A stretch of DNA of 64,000 nucleotides from Candidatus Heimdallarchaeota archaeon (GTDB lineage: Archaea; Asgardarchaeota; Heimdallarchaeia; Heimdallarchaeales; Heimdallarchaeaceae), in NCBI GenBank assembly GCA_019057815.1, contig JAHLWR010000001.1:224001-288000 (forward strand), given 5' to 3'. The notes below the pieces were generated by a model. That model did no database searches and was not told the origin of the DNA. It saw nothing but the letters and a program-made list of their open reading frames with translations. The position numbers and the translations under genes are program-made. Positions 2,452 to 16,429 of this stretch are shown here, piece after piece (position 1 is the first letter of the stretch; each line of letters opens with the position of its first letter).

Positions 2452-2784
2452 ATGTTGTTGAATAAGAGAATGGTATTCAAAACTCTTTTAATTCTTGGTA
2501 TTATGGGTATTATAACCTTAACTGCTACTACTGTATTCGCACAAGAGGATAATGATACTGTTACAGTTACAGAAGATACTTCTGGACTAAAATATATAGG
2601 AGCTGCTATTGCAGTATCTTTTGCCGGTATTGGAGCTTCAATAGGAATGGCAATGGCAGGTAGTGCAGCTATAGGGGCCATCGTCGAGAAACCAGAGCTC
2701 TTTGGAAAAGTTTTCTTGTTTGTAGTGCTTATTGAAGCTGTAGCCATCTACGGTCTATTAGCAGCTATTCTTATGGTTCTCTAA
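2452..2784 (+). CDS. atpK: A/V-type ATP synthase subunit K/c (proteolipid) with N-terminal signal-like extension
   Basis: Single hairpin GAAIAVSFAGIGASIG...EKPELFGK...VLIEAVAIYG carrying the essential Glu; GGTGA SD. Confidence 0.92.
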   Translation: MLLNKRMVFKTLLILGIMGIITLTATTVFAQEDNDTVTVTEDTSGLKYIGAAIAVSFAGIGASIGMAMAGSAAIGAIVEKPELFGKVFLFVVLIEAVAIYGLLAAILMVL

Positions 2785-6060: not shown

Positions 6061-7056
6061 TTACTTTTTATTGATAGTTACTTTCTTGTCTTCCAGTTTT
6101 ATTTTTTTAAAGAACAAAGTTGTTTGGGAAATAGACGTAATCGCAATTCCTAGTAAGATGACAAACATATAAAGAACAGTAATGGGTCGAGGAATCTCGC
6201 TTAAAATTACTATTCCTAAAATCGTTGCTCCTACAGGTTCCGCTACTATTACTGTACCAACAAAATAAGCTGGTAATCGTCTAAGAGAATAATTATAAGT
6301 TGCATGTCCGATTAAAGAAGGACCAATAGCCATTAACAGAATGAAAACAAAAGCAATAGCTGTATATTCGAATAAATCATAACCTCTTATTATATTGTAA
6401 AAAAGTAAACTTATCCCAGAAATTAAATTAACCAAACCAAAATATGGCCATAGAGGAGAATCTTGAAGGATTTTCTTACCGATTAGAAAATAGAAGGTTA
6501 CAGTTAACGCTCCAATAAGAGCAAAAAATATTCCCAATACCGGATTAACTTGTGATGTATCATCTGTTGTAGCAAAAGCCAATAATACACCTCCAACAAA
6601 TGCGAAGATAATCCCTATAATACCAAAACAATTAATTTTTTCTTTGAAGATAACAAAACCAAAGATTGCCATAAAAATAGGAACTGTATCTACTAGAGTT
6701 GTTGAAATGGCAACAGAAACATATTCTAATGATAAAAACCATGTCGCGAAATGTATTGCTAATAATATTCCTGAAATTATTATCCAATGTAATCTTTTAA
6801 CTGTGGTAGGTTTAACAATCCAATTTATTTCTCCCCTAGATAGTGCAAATATCAAGGCTATAACCCCAGCAAACAATGTTCTATACATTGCTATTACTTC
6901 AGAGGGCACATTATACCCAAATTCTGATGACTGAAGTACTGAAACAATAGGTGCAGCGAAAGAAACAGATATTATAGCTATGAATAACAAAAGATAAGGA
7001 AATAATCCTTTTTTATTTTCATTGATGCTTTTGTTTTCATTTTGCATAAATCGCAC
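6061..7056 (-). CDS. DMT/EamA-family transporter
   Basis: About 10 TM segments; HFATWFLSL and AEPVGATILG EamA patterns. Confidence 0.88.
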   Translation of the reverse strand: MRFMQNENKSINENKKGLFPYLLLFIAIISVSFAAPIVSVLQSSEFGYNVPSEVIAMYRTLFAGVIALIFALSRGEINWIVKPTTVKRLHWIIISGILLAIHFATWFLSLEYVSVAISTTLVDTVPIFMAIFGFVIFKEKINCFGIIGIIFAFVGGVLLAFATTDDTSQVNPVLGIFFALIGALTVTFYFLIGKKILQDSPLWPYFGLVNLISGISLLFYNIIRGYDLFEYTAIAFVFILLMAIGPSLIGHATYNYSLRRLPAYFVGTVIVAEPVGATILGIVILSEIPRPITVLYMFVILLGIAITSISQTTLFFKKIKLEDKKVTINKK

Positions 7057-10153: not shown

Positions 10154-10540
10154 ATGTCGATTGATTTAAAACCAGAACAGAAACATCAACTAGTTCGAAT
10201 ACTCAAACAAATTTCTCTTGGTTGCGATTTAGAAGCTTTAGCTGTTGTTAATACGGAAGGATTAAAAATAGCATTTTTTTCCGAAAAAGGTAAGGTTGAC
10301 CCAGATTTAATGTCAGCATTAGCTTCAGCTATGAATAGCACAGGAAAGATGGTAGCTGAACAACTAAAACACGGAGGAATTGAACTAGTGCTAGTTAGAG
10401 GAGAAAAAGGTTTTACCATCCTATCAAATGCAGATAAATATATTCTTATTGGAGCCTCCGTTGATTTAACAAATACTGGTCTAGCATTACAAGTTATGAG
10501 GCGGTATGTACCAGAGGTTATAGAGATTCTTTCAGAATAA
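10154..10540 (+). CDS. Roadblock/LC7 domain protein
   Basis: ALAVVNTEGL...LMSALASAM...VLVRGEKGFTIL...LGLAL roadblock pattern; 128 aa. Confidence 0.88.
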   Translation: MSIDLKPEQKHQLVRILKQISLGCDLEALAVVNTEGLKIAFFSEKGKVDPDLMSALASAMNSTGKMVAEQLKHGGIELVLVRGEKGFTILSNADKYILIGASVDLTNTGLALQVMRRYVPEVIEILSE

Positions 10541-10597: not shown

Positions 10598-11596
10598 TTA
10601 CATTTGTAAACTATAAAAGAGTAAGCTTTCGCGAATTTCTTTTTCTGAAAATCCAGCGTTAATTCCAACAATAATACGTATTACATCCATCGTTTCAGCA
10701 AGTTTCAACTCAAAAAAAGCTATAACCACATCAATTTTTAATGTTATTCCATAACGGAATATCTTTTTCCATTTTTTAAGCTGATATCTTTCAACTGTAA
10801 ATTCTAAGTCGTGTAAAGGAACATTATCCCTACCTATATAAGGTGAAAAAATAGTTTTGTATATACCATAATTGTATTTTTCTAAAACTTCTGAAATAGT
10901 ATTACAACTAAGAGCCTTAGCAATGAATTTGTTTGGTAAGATATACCTGTATGCTGGAATACCCAAAGCAATGCAACGACTAAGAGCGAGTATGTTCTTC
11001 AGATTTACATAAGTAGAGTAAGATTTAGAGAGATTTGTTAGAGTATCATAAATATACTGATCAATAGCTGATTCGATCGGAGTAAATCGTCCTGTTGACT
11101 CATATTCCTTGTATCCATCTTTAAGAAGATTTTTAAGATTTGTCTCATTTTGTTCATCTATAATTTCACCGATGGTGAGAGGAAGTAGTTTTTCGTAGTA
11201 ATCTAAGGAATATTCAGCAACTGGAATAATCCTAGAGATTATTTCTTTATAAGACATTCCCATAAACTTTCCGTGTAAAATATAACGAAGGTTCTCAGCA
11301 TTATATCTTTCAAAGAATATACCTATTTTTTTCTTTGCAGATAACGAAGTTTGTCTGTAAAATAACATTATAAGATCTGAAAAAGTTTTCTTAAAGCGAC
11401 GATCTACTTCGGGCATTTGCGTTTCTAAGTTTAAATCTTTAATAACTTCATCATACATTGTTTGTGTGAAAGCTGCTCGAAGTTCTTTTAGGTTAGAAGA
11501 CGCTAATAGCAAACTCAATTGAGATTTTGTTAACACATTACCTATAATTCCGTGAGCCCTGCCTATTAAATAACTGATATCGCCTAAAGAAAACAT
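10598..11596 (-). CDS. atpC: A/V-type ATP synthase subunit C (AC39/d family)
   Basis: YLIGRAHG N-terminus, YNAENLRYILHGK, IESAIDQY; co-transcribed with subunit I. Confidence 0.85.
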   Translation of the reverse strand: MFSLGDISYLIGRAHGIIGNVLTKSQLSLLLASSNLKELRAAFTQTMYDEVIKDLNLETQMPEVDRRFKKTFSDLIMLFYRQTSLSAKKKIGIFFERYNAENLRYILHGKFMGMSYKEIISRIIPVAEYSLDYYEKLLPLTIGEIIDEQNETNLKNLLKDGYKEYESTGRFTPIESAIDQYIYDTLTNLSKSYSTYVNLKNILALSRCIALGIPAYRYILPNKFIAKALSCNTISEVLEKYNYGIYKTIFSPYIGRDNVPLHDLEFTVERYQLKKWKKIFRYGITLKIDVVIAFFELKLAETMDVIRIIVGINAGFSEKEIRESLLFYSLQM

Positions 11597-11598
11597 TT

Positions 11599-14500
11599 CT
11601 ACAACCCTTTAGATGAAACGAAGTGAATAAAGTTCGTTTTTTCAGTGATAGGTTTATATTTTAAACCATCTCCAACGTAGAATTTGCTGAAGAATTCAAC
11701 CCATGTAAGTCTCAGAGCATTTAAGAAACTTAAGAGACCTTCAAGTGGTACAATAATCATCGACATCAATAAAACTGTTACCCACCATAAAACACTTAGT
11801 GGCTCTAATCCATCTATTAATCGTAAGGGTAGACCACTTAGAATTGCATGAACGAGTAATAAAGCCATTAATCGACTGAATGAAAGCGTGTTTGAAATTA
11901 ATGCGATTATGTGGTCTATACCATCGAGAATTCCATCTGTTTTTGCATGAAAATATTCAGATATGAACATAACAGGTAGCATGACAGCCATTATTATAAT
12001 AATAATGGTCATTACATTTGGGGGAATTTTGTGAACCCAAATACCTAGAGAATGAACTTCTAAACCTTCACCTACCATCATATTGTATAGTACACTGAAT
12101 ATACCAACATAGACTAAGGATAGGGAAGCGGGAGCAATTTTAGACGCGATACCATGACCAAATTTCATATTTTGAACAAATTTTAACAAAATTCCCAACT
12201 GAATTATTACAAAACCGACAACAATTGCGAATGTCAATAATAATTGAGTTTCGTGCATAGGGCTGATGAGAGGTATCCAATCCATCCCAATACCGTGGAA
12301 GAATTTTGGTATCAGCTCTTCATCACCAAAAAACGAACCAAAAAGCACACCCATGAAAGCTGAAGTTAAACCACAAATAATGAGCAATTCTGCTCCAGAA
12401 TAGAGATAGCCTAACATGGATTCATCAGGTTCGATTTTGTTTTTCTTTTTCTTATATAAGAGGAAACCACCGATTAAAGCTAGCATTAAACCATGACCCA
12501 AATCTGCGAACATCAATCCAAAGAGCAATGGAAAAGTATACTTGACTATTGAATAAGGGTCAACCTCGTTCAGATTTGGTTCTCCTATTCCTCCAACTAA
12601 ATCACGAATAACTCCCATAAACTTTCCTTGTTTTGTTATGGAAGGACTTATAAGAGGAACTTTTTCAGTGAAGGTAATCTTCATTTCAAATTTTGCCTCT
12701 TCATTAGCTTTTAAAATCTGGTCAATTTTATCTGCTGGAATCCATCCCCAGAGCGTAATTTCATCTTCCATAGTTTGGCAAGTTTCTTCTGTTCGGATTC
12801 TCTCAAGTTCTACCTCTATAATTTCGTTTACTGTAGCTAGTCTCTCGGATATAGAAGAGCATATTTCTTCAAGAGATTCATTAAGTTTTTCTTTTTCTGT
12901 GTTCAATTTTGCGATAGTTTCCTCAAGAGATTCATCAAGTTTCATTATTTCTGTATCAAATTCAATTTCCTGGAAAGAATACTCGCCCAACACCCTCAAA
13001 ACTGCAGGTTCATATTCCTTTAAAGATAAAACAAGAAGACGTTTCTCATTTCCTTTGGAATACTTTTGTTCTGAGAACCGAAACAAAATATTTCCATCAG
13101 TTACTTCCTTCAGGAAAAATTTTACTGCTTTGAACTGGCTTTTTGGTACTGTTCCTATTTTTGTTATTGTTTGAAAACCTTCTTCAAAAAGATCAATTTC
13201 TAAATCTTCTTTGTGAAATTGCGTTTCAAAAGTAAGAGAAAGATTCATTTGGTCTATTTTTTTCTGAATTTGGTTTCGTTCACTTGTAATAGATAAAATC
13301 TTTTCCTCGTTTTCCTGAAGGAAATTTTCAATGAAAGCTTTTGAGTGAATATATTGATCTACTAGTTTATATTTATTGGAAATTAGTGCTTCAGGAGTCT
13401 CAAATTGAGTTACATCTATAATTTTCTTTATCCTTGCTAGATATTGAGTAAGTTCCATCCTTTTCGAGTTGAGTTTTTCAATTCTCTCTTGATTTTGAGA
13501 ACCTATTTTAATTGGATGAACAGTATTTAATGATAAAAGAAGAGAAATGAACTGTCTTGAATATTCCTCAGAAGCTTCAAATTTCACAAATGAAGATTTT
13601 TTGGGGAACAATAATCCACCTTTTGCATGTAATCCTCTGTGAGATAAGGGAGTAATGCGTTTCACTCCAAGCTCAAGTTTTTTAGGAGTAATAATAGTTA
13701 ATTCGTCTCTTTCTTCACTTTTACTTTTTTTGTAATCAAAAGGAACCTCTGAGAGTTCATTCACATTAACTTCAAATGATAATAGTTTTAACTCCTCAAT
13801 AAAATCATTAAGCTGTTTCTTTCTTATCCATCCCCAGAGTGTAAGAGTTTTTTCGGAAGTTCTACCTTTTTCCTCCATTATTAAAAGATCATGAGCTACA
13901 TAAATAAGAGAAATTTTGTATAAGATTTTATCTTTTGATTTAGAGGTAATATTATCTAGTTCATTTTTTGCTTGCTCAAGATCTGTACCAACCCTACTAT
14001 AGAGCTTGTTGATACTCGCTGTTTTTGTAATTTTATCAATAGAATCAAAATCAGATAGATCTAATTTGGTAGTATCAAAATGATTCTCTTGAAGAACATC
14101 TTCTATCTGAGATTTGTAATCATTAAGAGAGACGCAAATAATAGCACGTCTTTCTGGATTATTTGTAGTTGTGCTCCAGAAAAAGAAATTATCTGCAGAT
14201 ATTTCTTTTATGTAGAAACGGATTAACTCTTCGTAAGAAGTGGGTATTTCACCAAGAAGTGTAAAAGTTCTAGAACCCGAAGATAACATATCAAGAGATA
14301 ACTCATTTTCTTCAACTTCTCCTTTAAATTTTGCTAATGCAGAAAGAATTCGTTCGTCCTTTAATAATTCTTGATATTTATCATATAATGAATTTATTTG
14401 ACTCTCCTTATTTTCTACAAGCGCTTTAATCTCAGAATCTAATTTGTTCAGATTGAAAAGAGTACTGTAATCTTCCTTTTCTAAAGTTGGAAGAGATGAA

Positions 14501-14745
14501 AAATCAAACCCCATTTTAAAACTCATTAGTCCTAATCGGTTATAACTCTCTTCGAGAGAGTCTTTTAATTGTTGTATCCTAGCCTGTTGTTTGGGAGATT
14601 GGGGGTCAACAATTTGTTGATTGAAAGATTCATTTCCATGAAGTTCTATTAATAGAGGAAGCGTATCATCTACTTTAGTCTGTACTTTAACAAGTATTTG
14701 AGGAGATGTAATAAGATTTTTAATCTTGTTCAAGCCTAGAACCAT
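11599..14745 (-). CDS. atpI: A/V-type ATP synthase subunit I (a) with duplicated N-terminal soluble domain
   Basis: EVDP...FPLLFGLMFADLGHG, SNTLSFSRLMAL (essential Arg), LRLTWVEFFSKFY; 1048 aa with two copies of the LWGWI-containing domain. Confidence 0.93.
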   Translation of the reverse strand: MVLGLNKIKNLITSPQILVKVQTKVDDTLPLLIELHGNESFNQQIVDPQSPKQQARIQQLKDSLEESYNRLGLMSFKMGFDFSSLPTLEKEDYSTLFNLNKLDSEIKALVENKESQINSLYDKYQELLKDERILSALAKFKGEVEENELSLDMLSSGSRTFTLLGEIPTSYEELIRFYIKEISADNFFFWSTTTNNPERRAIICVSLNDYKSQIEDVLQENHFDTTKLDLSDFDSIDKITKTASINKLYSRVGTDLEQAKNELDNITSKSKDKILYKISLIYVAHDLLIMEEKGRTSEKTLTLWGWIRKKQLNDFIEELKLLSFEVNVNELSEVPFDYKKSKSEERDELTIITPKKLELGVKRITPLSHRGLHAKGGLLFPKKSSFVKFEASEEYSRQFISLLLSLNTVHPIKIGSQNQERIEKLNSKRMELTQYLARIKKIIDVTQFETPEALISNKYKLVDQYIHSKAFIENFLQENEEKILSITSERNQIQKKIDQMNLSLTFETQFHKEDLEIDLFEEGFQTITKIGTVPKSQFKAVKFFLKEVTDGNILFRFSEQKYSKGNEKRLLVLSLKEYEPAVLRVLGEYSFQEIEFDTEIMKLDESLEETIAKLNTEKEKLNESLEEICSSISERLATVNEIIEVELERIRTEETCQTMEDEITLWGWIPADKIDQILKANEEAKFEMKITFTEKVPLISPSITKQGKFMGVIRDLVGGIGEPNLNEVDPYSIVKYTFPLLFGLMFADLGHGLMLALIGGFLLYKKKKNKIEPDESMLGYLYSGAELLIICGLTSAFMGVLFGSFFGDEELIPKFFHGIGMDWIPLISPMHETQLLLTFAIVVGFVIIQLGILLKFVQNMKFGHGIASKIAPASLSLVYVGIFSVLYNMMVGEGLEVHSLGIWVHKIPPNVMTIIIIIMAVMLPVMFISEYFHAKTDGILDGIDHIIALISNTLSFSRLMALLLVHAILSGLPLRLIDGLEPLSVLWWVTVLLMSMIIVPLEGLLSFLNALRLTWVEFFSKFYVGDGLKYKPITEKTNFIHFVSSKGL

Positions 14746-15292
14746 ATATGTTTCACCAGAGTGAAAATTATGTTAGATTACGAGAATTTAAGATTATTTT
14801 AAAGTCTTCCTCTCCGACAGAGATTAGGGTATAAAGTATCATAATAATGTTATTTCTCCAAGCATTTTTTCTTATTTTCTCAGGCATTTTTCCAATTGCA
14901 TTAACGTAAAGAAACTCTAGACATACTAGATTTATTTTTCAAAACATACTGATAGTGTCCTCTTTATACAAAATGCTAGTTTTCTTTAACAATAGGAAAA
15001 GATTCGACTAAATTGTTGAATCGTTTTAGAAGAGCAAAAAGAGTCGATGCCTTTTAATAGAATCTTGAAGGAATGAATAACATAATAACGATACCTAAAA
15101 CTAGGTCTAGAAATAACACAAAGTATAAAAACATCGAAGAGAGAGTGAATAAGCGCTCAAGTGAGCATAAGACTATAGGGAGATAGTAACAAAGACTATC
15201 AAAAACATTAAATACTAAATTAATAGTAACTGATTCATATAATCCTTATAGCTAAAGTTAAGCTCAAAATATAGCATAAAAGGTGAAATATA

Positions 15293-16429
15293 TTGGAAGA
15301 AGTAATAAGTAACAAACCACTCGTAATCGACAATGGTACTGGTTTCACTAAAAACGGTTTTGCTGGTGAAGACCAACCAAGAAGCGTTTTTCCAACTATT
15401 ATTGGTTATCCTAAATATCAGATAATCATGACAGATGTTGAACACTATGTCCGAGAGTACTACATTGGCGAAGAAGCTATCAATCTGCGTGGTGTGCTCA
15501 AACTTGTTTATCCTGTTGAGCATGGTCAAGTTCAAGATTGGGATGCTATGGAAAGAATTTGGCACTACACGTTTTATAATGATTTGCGTGTTAATCCTAA
15601 TGAACATCCTATTCTATTAACTGAACCTCCGCTGAACAAGAATCAGAACAAGGAGAAAATGGCTGAACTGATGTTTGATACATTTAATGTTCCTGCTATG
15701 TACATCTCCATGCAAGCTATTCTATCTCTCTATGCTTCTGGCCGTACAACTGGTATTGTCGTCGACTCTGGTGATGGTGTTACACACATCGTGCCAGTCT
15801 ATGAAGGTTTTGCTATCCATCACGCTATCCACAGATCAGATATCGGTGGTCGTGATGTTACTGACTACCTACGCAGACTCCTCAGACAACGAGGTTATTC
15901 ACTTTCCAGCAGTGCTGAACGTGAAATTGTCCGTGATATCAAAGAACGTCTTTGCTATGTTGCTCTTGACCCTGAAAAAGAATTAAGATTAGCTGAAAAA
16001 GTTTCAGGAATGGAGAAGACATACACTCTCCCTGATGGTGAGACACTTACCATTGGTGCAGAGAGATTCATGGCCCCTGAATTGTTCTACAACCCTGGCG
16101 CTATTGGATCAGAAGAAAATCCTCTAGACGATTTGATTTACCGATCAATTCAAAGCTGTGATATCGATCTCCGAAGAGATTTATATGCAAATATAGTTCT
16201 ATCTGGTGGTTCAACAATGTTCCCAGGTCTTAAAGAACGTCTACATAAAGAAATAACTGAACTCGTTCCTGAGACTATAGAAATAAAGATCATTGCCCCA
16301 CCCGAGAGAAGATATTCAGTCTGGATAGGTGGAAGTATTCTTAGCAGCCTTAAGACATTCACAAAGTTGTGGGTAACCAAGAAAGAGTACCAAGAAAGTG
16401 GACCAACTGCAGTTTATCGTTGCATTTAA
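15293..16429 (+). CDS. Asgard actin (eukaryote-like actin)
   Basis: [75 protein letters not shown] start after GGTGA; codon choice rich in C-ending codons, suggesting high expression. Confidence 0.97.

Follow-up and report, generated by a model that had tools for sequence, protein, structure and literature searches.

A defining trait of each type of rotary ATPase is how many peripheral stalks it has: F-type enzymes have one, A-type enzymes two and V-type enzymes three. Each lobe of the N-terminal domain of subunit a (a-NT) binds one stalk, as set out in PMC10313074. PMC6131620 gives two stalks for A-ATPases and three for V-ATPases, the additional one being held by the head of subunit C, and places the foot of yeast subunit C on a stalk that also binds a-NT; the same text describes subunit C as lacking homologues in A- and F-type enzymes. 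The origin of this eukaryote-only collar subunit is unexplained. Here, we describe a gene for A/V-ATPase subunit I (a) in which the stalk-anchoring domain occurs twice. It lies on a stretch of 64,000 nucleotides (the window; positions 224,001 to 288,000 of contig JAHLWR010000001.1, assembly GCA_019057815.1) from a Candidatus Heimdallarchaeota archaeon of the family Heimdallarchaeaceae, whose genome comprises 3.74 Mb on 48 contigs and is 95% complete. The duplication is real, functional, lineage-specific, ancient and family-wide, and it resides in the sole stator subunit of an enzyme that is A-type in other respects: a whole archaeal family has doubled the stalk-anchoring domain in its only enzyme and maintains the copy under selection.

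The gene and its parts are listed here, N1 being the extra N-terminal copy and N2 the copy in the canonical place.

11599..14745, minus strand: A/V-ATPase subunit I (a), whole gene; a single open reading frame (ORF) of 1048 amino acids (aa) plus stop codon, from the ORF list and its translation
13711..14703, minus strand: N1, additional copy of the cytoplasmic dumbbell domain at the N-terminal end, residues ~15-345
13597..13710, minus strand: linker from N1 to N2, residues ~346-383
12631..13596, minus strand: N2, canonical cytoplasmic domain in the a-NT place of a normal subunit I, residues ~384-705
11602..12630, minus strand: membrane domain with the conserved Arg958 in long C-terminal helices, residues ~706-1048
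12741..12753, plus strand: 13-mer TCCATCCCCAGAG, N2 copy, located by exact search; it encodes part of TLWGWI on the minus strand
13827..13839, plus strand: 13-mer TCCATCCCCAGAG, N1 copy, located by exact search, 1086 nt from the N2 copy

An earlier note, made from the sequence alone, had read this frame as a subunit I with a tandemly duplicated cytoplasmic domain, and family profiles bear out the assignment. The 1048-aa protein scores 133.5 bits against PF01496 (V_ATPase_I; cut-off 30.7), and positions 4-643 of the 646-position NCBIfam profile NF004430 align to residues 381-1039. The NCBIfam subunit I equivalogs match at an E-value of 1.5e-65, yet remain below their equivalog cut-offs (e.g. 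221.6 versus 766). Since NF004430 is aligned over its whole length, a complete subunit I starts at about residue 380, and the ~380 residues before it are additional. Normal homologues of 670-720 aa likewise align from residue ~379 onward. In the membrane part R958, the essential arginine in the long tilted helices of this domain, is invariant across 46 sequences, as are 12 further positions; the AlphaFold2 model places helices at residues 909-955, 957-978 and 981-1022. Public annotations of the long-form homologues read "hypothetical" or "116kDa subunit family" and do not flag the duplication. The linker is charged, variable and predicted to be disordered, and ends in a conserved GG.LF.KK lead-in to N2. 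Its predicted local distance difference test score (pLDDT) falls below 50 at residues 342-348 and 352-361, within a low-confidence stretch spanning ~342-383. We also considered an internal start that would yield a normal-length second product; this was rejected, as the alignment block of 24 sequences contains no conserved internal Met in the linker.

The two copies can be recognized at several levels. The 13-mer TCCATCCCCAGAG, which encodes the LWGW strand common to both copies, was found by exact search exactly twice in the window, and its spacing of 1086 nt corresponds to the 362-codon period given in the earlier note. All six peptide motifs quoted there are present as well, at residues 161, 176 and 302 in the first copy and at residues 528, 542 and 664 in the second. 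Comparing residues 1-385 with residues 386-1048 by BLASTP gave 23% identity over 236 columns (E-value 1e-15) at the same offset of 362. Alignment of an N1 profile (24 sequences) with an N2 profile (21 sequences) by hhalign covered the whole domain over 314 columns with a probability of 100 and an E-value of 3.4e-41. By these alignments the repeat is far beyond chance, and the tandem duplication of the soluble domain that had been proposed is upheld. The isoelectric point was uninformative in this respect, with a median of 4.9 for N1 versus 5.0 for normal a-NT domains.

Structure prediction supports the same conclusion. A full-length AlphaFold2 model built on the 46-sequence alignment reached a pLDDT of 79.7 and a predicted template modelling score (pTM) of 0.62; N1 modelled alone reached 87.5 and 0.77. 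In the models N1 (strand 16-24 to strand 326-330) and N2 (strand 384-392 to strand 689-693) share an identical order of strands and helices, namely beta-alpha-beta, a helical hairpin, beta-alpha-beta-beta-alpha, a return helix and beta-alpha-beta. Foldseek searches with N1 alone returned the a-NT domains of the yeast, mammalian and Thermus enzymes and the N-domain of the 3rrk subunit I as top matches, with E-values from 1.5e-11 to ~1e-8 and template modelling (TM) scores of up to 0.62 (best 6o7u_a, E-value 1.5e-11; 3rrk, E-value 2.9e-11). Yeast subunit C (1u7l) came only at rank 39 (E-value 5.3e-6, TM 0.27). With the whole model the matches were to subunit a of V-ATPases and to the T. thermophilus subunit I, with E-values from 3.9e-30 to 1e-23 and 9brd_a as the best. 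As modelled, N1 resembles a-NT more than subunit C.

The long form is spread through one family, named Heimdallarchaeaceae by our sources; the records of homologues carry the source names Heimdallarchaeota, Heimdallarchaeaceae or Asgard group. When residues 1-385 were used as query, a word-based search recovered 20 other proteins of 902-1076 aa that are 38-90% identical. An exhaustive HMMER scan of 1.84 billion representatives returned four full-length long clusters plus fragments, and the score falls abruptly after the long forms (E-value from 1e-189 to 1e-70) to normal forms of 670-720 aa. In a class-level survey of 83 genomes, which included the source genome, N1 was matched in 28 of the 30 other family genomes. 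The frame is intact, at 1043-1071 aa, in 25 family genomes (source genome included), two of them single-contig, and in four family genomes the long gene is cut by contig ends. No subunit I was found in family genome G004, which is 89% complete, and G018 shows solely a canonical 678-aa subunit I. The same-order families yielded weak single N1 matches in seven of 16 genomes, with frames of 684-732 aa, and none of the 36 genomes from three further families of the class had a match to N1. A phylum-wide survey with the membrane domain as query sampled 301 Asgard genomes, 258 of which matched; 150 matches were listed and another 199 were not. Among the matches listed, 22 frames reach 1043 aa or more, every one of them from Heimdallarchaeaceae, and frames from outside the family measure 390-803 aa. 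This agrees with the earlier statement that a normal subunit I is much shorter, as does the length of NF004430.

An assembly artefact is contradicted by the intact long frames in 25 genomes, and an 801-bp Logan contig from another study spans the junction of N1, linker and N2. Among the findings that the earlier note had named as evidence against itself were a first copy with a different fold and a duplication that is isolated or an assembly feature; since N1 folds like a-NT, and since the duplication recurs across genomes and is no artefact, the claim of a duplicated a-NT stands. Free-standing N1-like proteins were not found by the word-based search, which could miss distant free forms. The four short N1 matches (279-493 aa) come from contigs of 950-3437 bp and are fragments, one of these proteins being marked partial.

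Some genomes of the family deviate in other ways. A second, canonical-length subunit I was recorded in four of them (G013:C39, G026:C182, G017:C116 and G018:C221, the last being locus L015). These genes encode 678-689 aa and are 31-33% identical in the membrane domain; the one in G018 is flanked by an E/H-like gene and a K gene, an arrangement known from classical operons. They belong to a second ATPase or lie on contaminant contigs. In one metagenome-assembled genome (MAG) the long gene is split inside N1 into products of 297 and 778 aa on one contig (P0176 and P0177), and the long frame of G011:C79 contains a single TAA. Because the break is not at a domain boundary, both are probably sequencing errors and not gene fission.

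An earlier tree with three monophyletic groups could not date the duplication and was replaced by one that adds same-order and distant forms. The latter (IQ-TREE, LG+C20 with posterior mean site frequencies, PMSF) comprised 31 normal N-domains, eight of them from same-order families, together with 11 of the 24 N1 rows and 11 of the 21 N2 rows, rows shorter than 250 residues having been dropped. N1 and N2 each formed a clade (support 100/100 and 99/89), and the two were joined with a support of 100/99. The combined clade is sister to the normal form P0026 (97/94) and is nested among other normal-length forms, and within their clades N1 and N2 branch in matching order. Because N1 and N2 are sister clades nested among normal-length forms, the tree indicates one duplication on the Heimdallarchaeaceae stem, followed by fast change in N1. 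By the same token the duplication is younger than the split of the family from its order relatives. P0026, a protein of 674 aa, shares no more than 32% identity with any of the loci fetched, and a search of 400 Asgard genomes for close relatives of it gave no match at E-value <= 1e-120. Together with its cluster members P0172-P0175 (all 664-674 aa, on contigs of up to 2.85 Mb) it is the nearest relative of the N1 and N2 clade.

Selection on the copy was estimated as the ratio of nonsynonymous to synonymous substitution rates (dN/dS) between the source genome (G000) and its congener G002. The ratio was 0.13 in N1, 0.33 in N2 and 0.35 in the membrane part, and reached 0.72 in the linker. Judged by this ratio N1 is under strong purifying selection, indicating that the duplication is maintained and functional. 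In addition, 25 positions are invariant in 24 N1 sequences and are spread over both lobes. N1 retains conserved residues of canonical a-NT domains at the aligned places (G165, E181, F223, W304, W306 and P335), and also the motifs common to both copies (the G of LG.IP, the E of F.L.E, WGW and VP).

The remainder of the enzyme and its gene neighbourhood are relevant for the role that N1 may have.

10598..11596, minus strand: subunit C/d (AC39), Pfam PF01992, E-value 1.2e-29; starts 2 nt past the subunit I stop
2452..2784, plus strand: subunit K/c (proteolipid), a single hairpin, ~9 kb from the subunit I gene
15293-16429, plus strand: eukaryote-like actin gene, Pfam Actin, E-value 2.6e-134

The whole source genome has one subunit I locus and no second subunit I, and subunits A, B, D, E, F, K/c and C are encoded by one gene each. 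Since all of these are single-copy, N1 must sit in the only enzyme of the cell. The c subunit of 110 aa has one PF00137 match at residues 49-108 and hence forms a single hairpin; the c subunit of eukaryote-type V-ATPases is a duplicated, four-helix proteolipid. Members of the eukaryotic subunit C family PF03223 were not detected in the genome at E-value <= 1, nor were members of the subunit H family PF03224 in a search that lacked a positive control. With a single-hairpin c subunit and no match to either family, the enzyme is A-type apart from its doubled subunit I.

We hold with high confidence the structural and evolutionary part of the explanation, i.e. a second a-NT dumbbell that arose by duplication within this lineage. 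The tandem duplication on the family stem copied the whole dumbbell. N2 stays on the membrane domain and would keep the canonical anchoring of two E-H peripheral stalks, one per lobe, and N1 hangs from it by a flexible linker of ~38 residues. In this arrangement N1 may serve the stator collar as an additional arm that works in the manner of eukaryotic subunit C, but that is fused to subunit I and arose independently. One of its lobes would lie beside N2, and the other could reach the single B-subunit position that is left free in two-stalk enzymes. This reach might allow a third E-H stalk to be held at the free position, with perhaps one stalk shared with N2. As the dumbbell is tethered at the proximal lobe of N2 and one head position is free, a third E-H stalk would be the simplest function for the retained N1 lobes. 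Taken as a whole, stem duplication with N1 as an extra collar arm is our best overall explanation, which we put forward tentatively as something close to, and still short of, probable. That N1 holds a third stalk, a role proposed by analogy, is possible rather than probable; it is the single likeliest specific role, yet not likelier than all alternatives together. On the same analogy, it is plausible that N1 is a built-in, convergent arm that resembles subunit C and holds a third stalk.

Several observations weigh against this explanation. The stem branch of N1 measures 1.1 substitutions per site versus 0.26 for N2, a fourfold difference that fits a changed partner just as well as a stalk-binding role kept since the duplication. 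The same is true for a near-invariant motif of its own, IVDPQSPK(E/Q)QARIQ at residues 45-58, which is absent from N2. There is one E gene and a weak H/G candidate (E-value 0.25), and so no genomic sign of extra stalk proteins, though none would be needed. None of the 24 N1 sequences matches Pfam V_ATPase_I or V-ATPase_C at E-value <= 1. The N1 profile retrieved five chance-level matches from the PDB sequences (best E-value 0.022), none of them an ATPase chain and hence no solved a-NT or subunit C. N1 is therefore tied to a-NT solely via N2 and via its fold.

The first two of these points would suit a regulatory or docking hub, in which N1 binds lipids, an assembly factor, the actin cytoskeleton or another partner, or blocks the rotor when the A1 head is absent. 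The own motif lies in the proximal lobe of N1, and eukaryotic a-NT domains, which act as hubs of this kind, are described as binding RAVE, phosphoinositides and ARNO in PMC10313074. The best TM scores of N1 (0.57-0.62) were obtained with the a-NT of the isolated, autoinhibited yeast Vo, which may reflect the bend of the hairpin alone. An actin gene adjoins subunit I or C in the window and at the three other family loci examined (G005, G009 and G023; loci L010, L013 and L014), and was not seen in the flanks fetched from other families. Subunit C of eukaryotes binds actin. However, the arrangement of this adjacency varies and it may be coincidence, no partner was identified, and the canonical a-NT positions kept in both lobes of N1 rather point to a retained ancestral role. 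We consider the hub an unlikely, if respectable, alternative to the extra collar arm.

Alternatively, N1 could brace the existing two-stalk stator by a second contact to the E-H stalk or stalks or to N2, stiffening the collar with no third stalk involved. The common fold and the conserved lobes are compatible with such a brace, and the tether of ~38 residues would keep N1 near the proximal lobe of N2. The stalk that the yeast subunit C foot shares with a-NT, as given in PMC6131620, offers a precedent. An entire second dumbbell, however, exceeds the need for one added contact. Although the present data do not separate bracing from a third stalk, we judge the former improbable enough to rank it behind the hub.

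The earlier note had gone further and suggested an intermediate between A- and V-ATPases, which would make the doubled subunit an ancestor of subunit C. An Asgard host with a eukaryote-like actin and a dumbbell fold common to a-NT and subunit C would be in line with this idea, yet the remaining evidence turns it down. The long form was found in this family alone, its same-order relatives having frames of 684-732 aa and other Asgard archaea frames of at most 803 aa among the matches listed, and the two copies are sister clades within the normal forms. N1 is closer to a-NT (E-value 1.5e-11, TM at most 0.62) than to subunit C (E-value 5.3e-6, TM 0.27). Moreover, the c subunit is a single hairpin, PF03223 and PF03224 are without a match in the genome, and the word-based search gave no free-standing N1-like protein. 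An intermediate is thus very improbable. Two further readings, N1 as the remains of a neutral duplication in decay and the long ORF as an artefact of assembly or gene calling, have a negligible chance: the gene split in one MAG (P0176 and P0177) and the TAA in the G011 frame are outweighed by the low dN/dS of N1, its 25 invariant positions, the confident model, the intact frames in 25 genomes (two of them closed) and the independent contig over the junction.

The genes of the enzyme are dispersed. K, I and C/d lie in the window, A, B, F and the weak H/G candidate (6148-6393) on contig 12, while contig 16 carries E (80620-81192) and contig 41 carries D, whereas the usual archaeal arrangement is a single operon. 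Given that C/d starts 2 nt past the stop of subunit I, the two are probably co-transcribed, and the I-C pair is kept in the family and in its order relatives. The clustering of I, C/d and K/c apart from A, B, D, E and F is also seen in same-order families with a subunit I of normal length. I, C and K follow in a row at five of the six f2 and f4 loci examined (L050, L051, L052, L053 and L056), and at the sixth (L055) the 9-kb fetch held only I. No A1-sector genes were found within the 9-17 kb fetched around the same-order I-C-K loci. This split of "Vo-like" from "V1-like" genes differs from the usual archaeal arrangement.

Other neighbours in the window include a gene for prolyl-tRNA synthetase (ProRS) and a Roadblock/LC7 gene (10154-10540, plus strand) located just downstream of C/d on the opposite strand. 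Roadblock/LC7 also lies beside C/d at two family loci (G005 and G009) and ~6 kb off at a third (G023). An ORF of 130 aa (15215-15607, minus strand) overlaps the actin gene, has no family match and is probably spurious.

A literature search that covered sources other than subscription papers found no paper on a duplicated N-domain of subunit I in Asgard archaea. In the available text of a preprint on rotary ATPase evolution (bioRxiv 10.64898/2026.10.01.756066) the duplication is not mentioned under the terms Asgard, duplication or subunit I. A more demanding claim, and one that we regard as doubtful, is that Heimdallarchaeaceae possess a rotary ATPase with three peripheral stalks, which would be the first known in prokaryotes, and that a built-in second a-NT holds the third of them in the role of eukaryotic subunit C. 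In any case the enzyme offers a purifiable test case for whether a duplicated a-NT can recruit a third stalk and for how stators gain parts.

Compared to the solved subunit I chains of PF01496 (T. thermophilus 6r0z_N and 6qum_N; Meiothermus ruber 3rrk), N2 and the membrane domain superpose on solved structures, the conserved Arg958 is present and the gene adjoins that of subunit C/d. The difference lies in the ~380 extra N-terminal residues, which form a second complete dumbbell. Elaborations of the N-domain are not confined to this family. Two further proteins, P0152 (974 aa) and P0161 (835 aa), carry an internal duplication in the cytoplasmic part of subunit I, but there ~155 residues are repeated and not the whole domain (E-value 2.5e-31 and 4.9e-15). 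Both are unrelated to the N1 clade, appear far down the match list and were aligned via the membrane domain only. Because they carry unrelated partial repeats, N-domain elaboration arose more than once. Six proteins of 809-835 aa have about the size of eukaryotic subunit a; four of the six (P0035, P0047, P0051 and P0070), and also P0162, showed no internal repeat, and P0161 has the partial one. Eukaryotic subunit a itself (Vph1/Stv1, ATP6V0a1-4) provides the best structural match both for the whole model (9brd_a) and for N1 (6o7u_a), yet it has one a-NT where the archaeal protein has two.

Eukaryotic subunit C (Vma5p, 1u7l; PF03223) is likewise an elongated, two-lobed protein with an a-NT-related fold, and N1 would take the same logical place in the stator. 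The paper on the 3rrk structure reportedly remarks on a likeness to subunit C. In contrast to N1, which is fused to subunit I, subunit C is free and releasable, and N1 has neither a PF03223 match nor a close structural correspondence to 1u7l (TM 0.27). Since N1 arose from the a-NT of its own lineage, any likeness in role would be convergent, and N1 offers at most a convergent parallel to the way in which subunit C possibly originated. That an a-NT duplication is viable in nature makes an origin of subunit C from a-NT more credible, which does not turn this lineage into its ancestor. If the enzyme indeed has three stalks, it would represent an independent replay of the step from a-NT duplication to a new collar arm by which the stator of the V-ATPase may have arisen.

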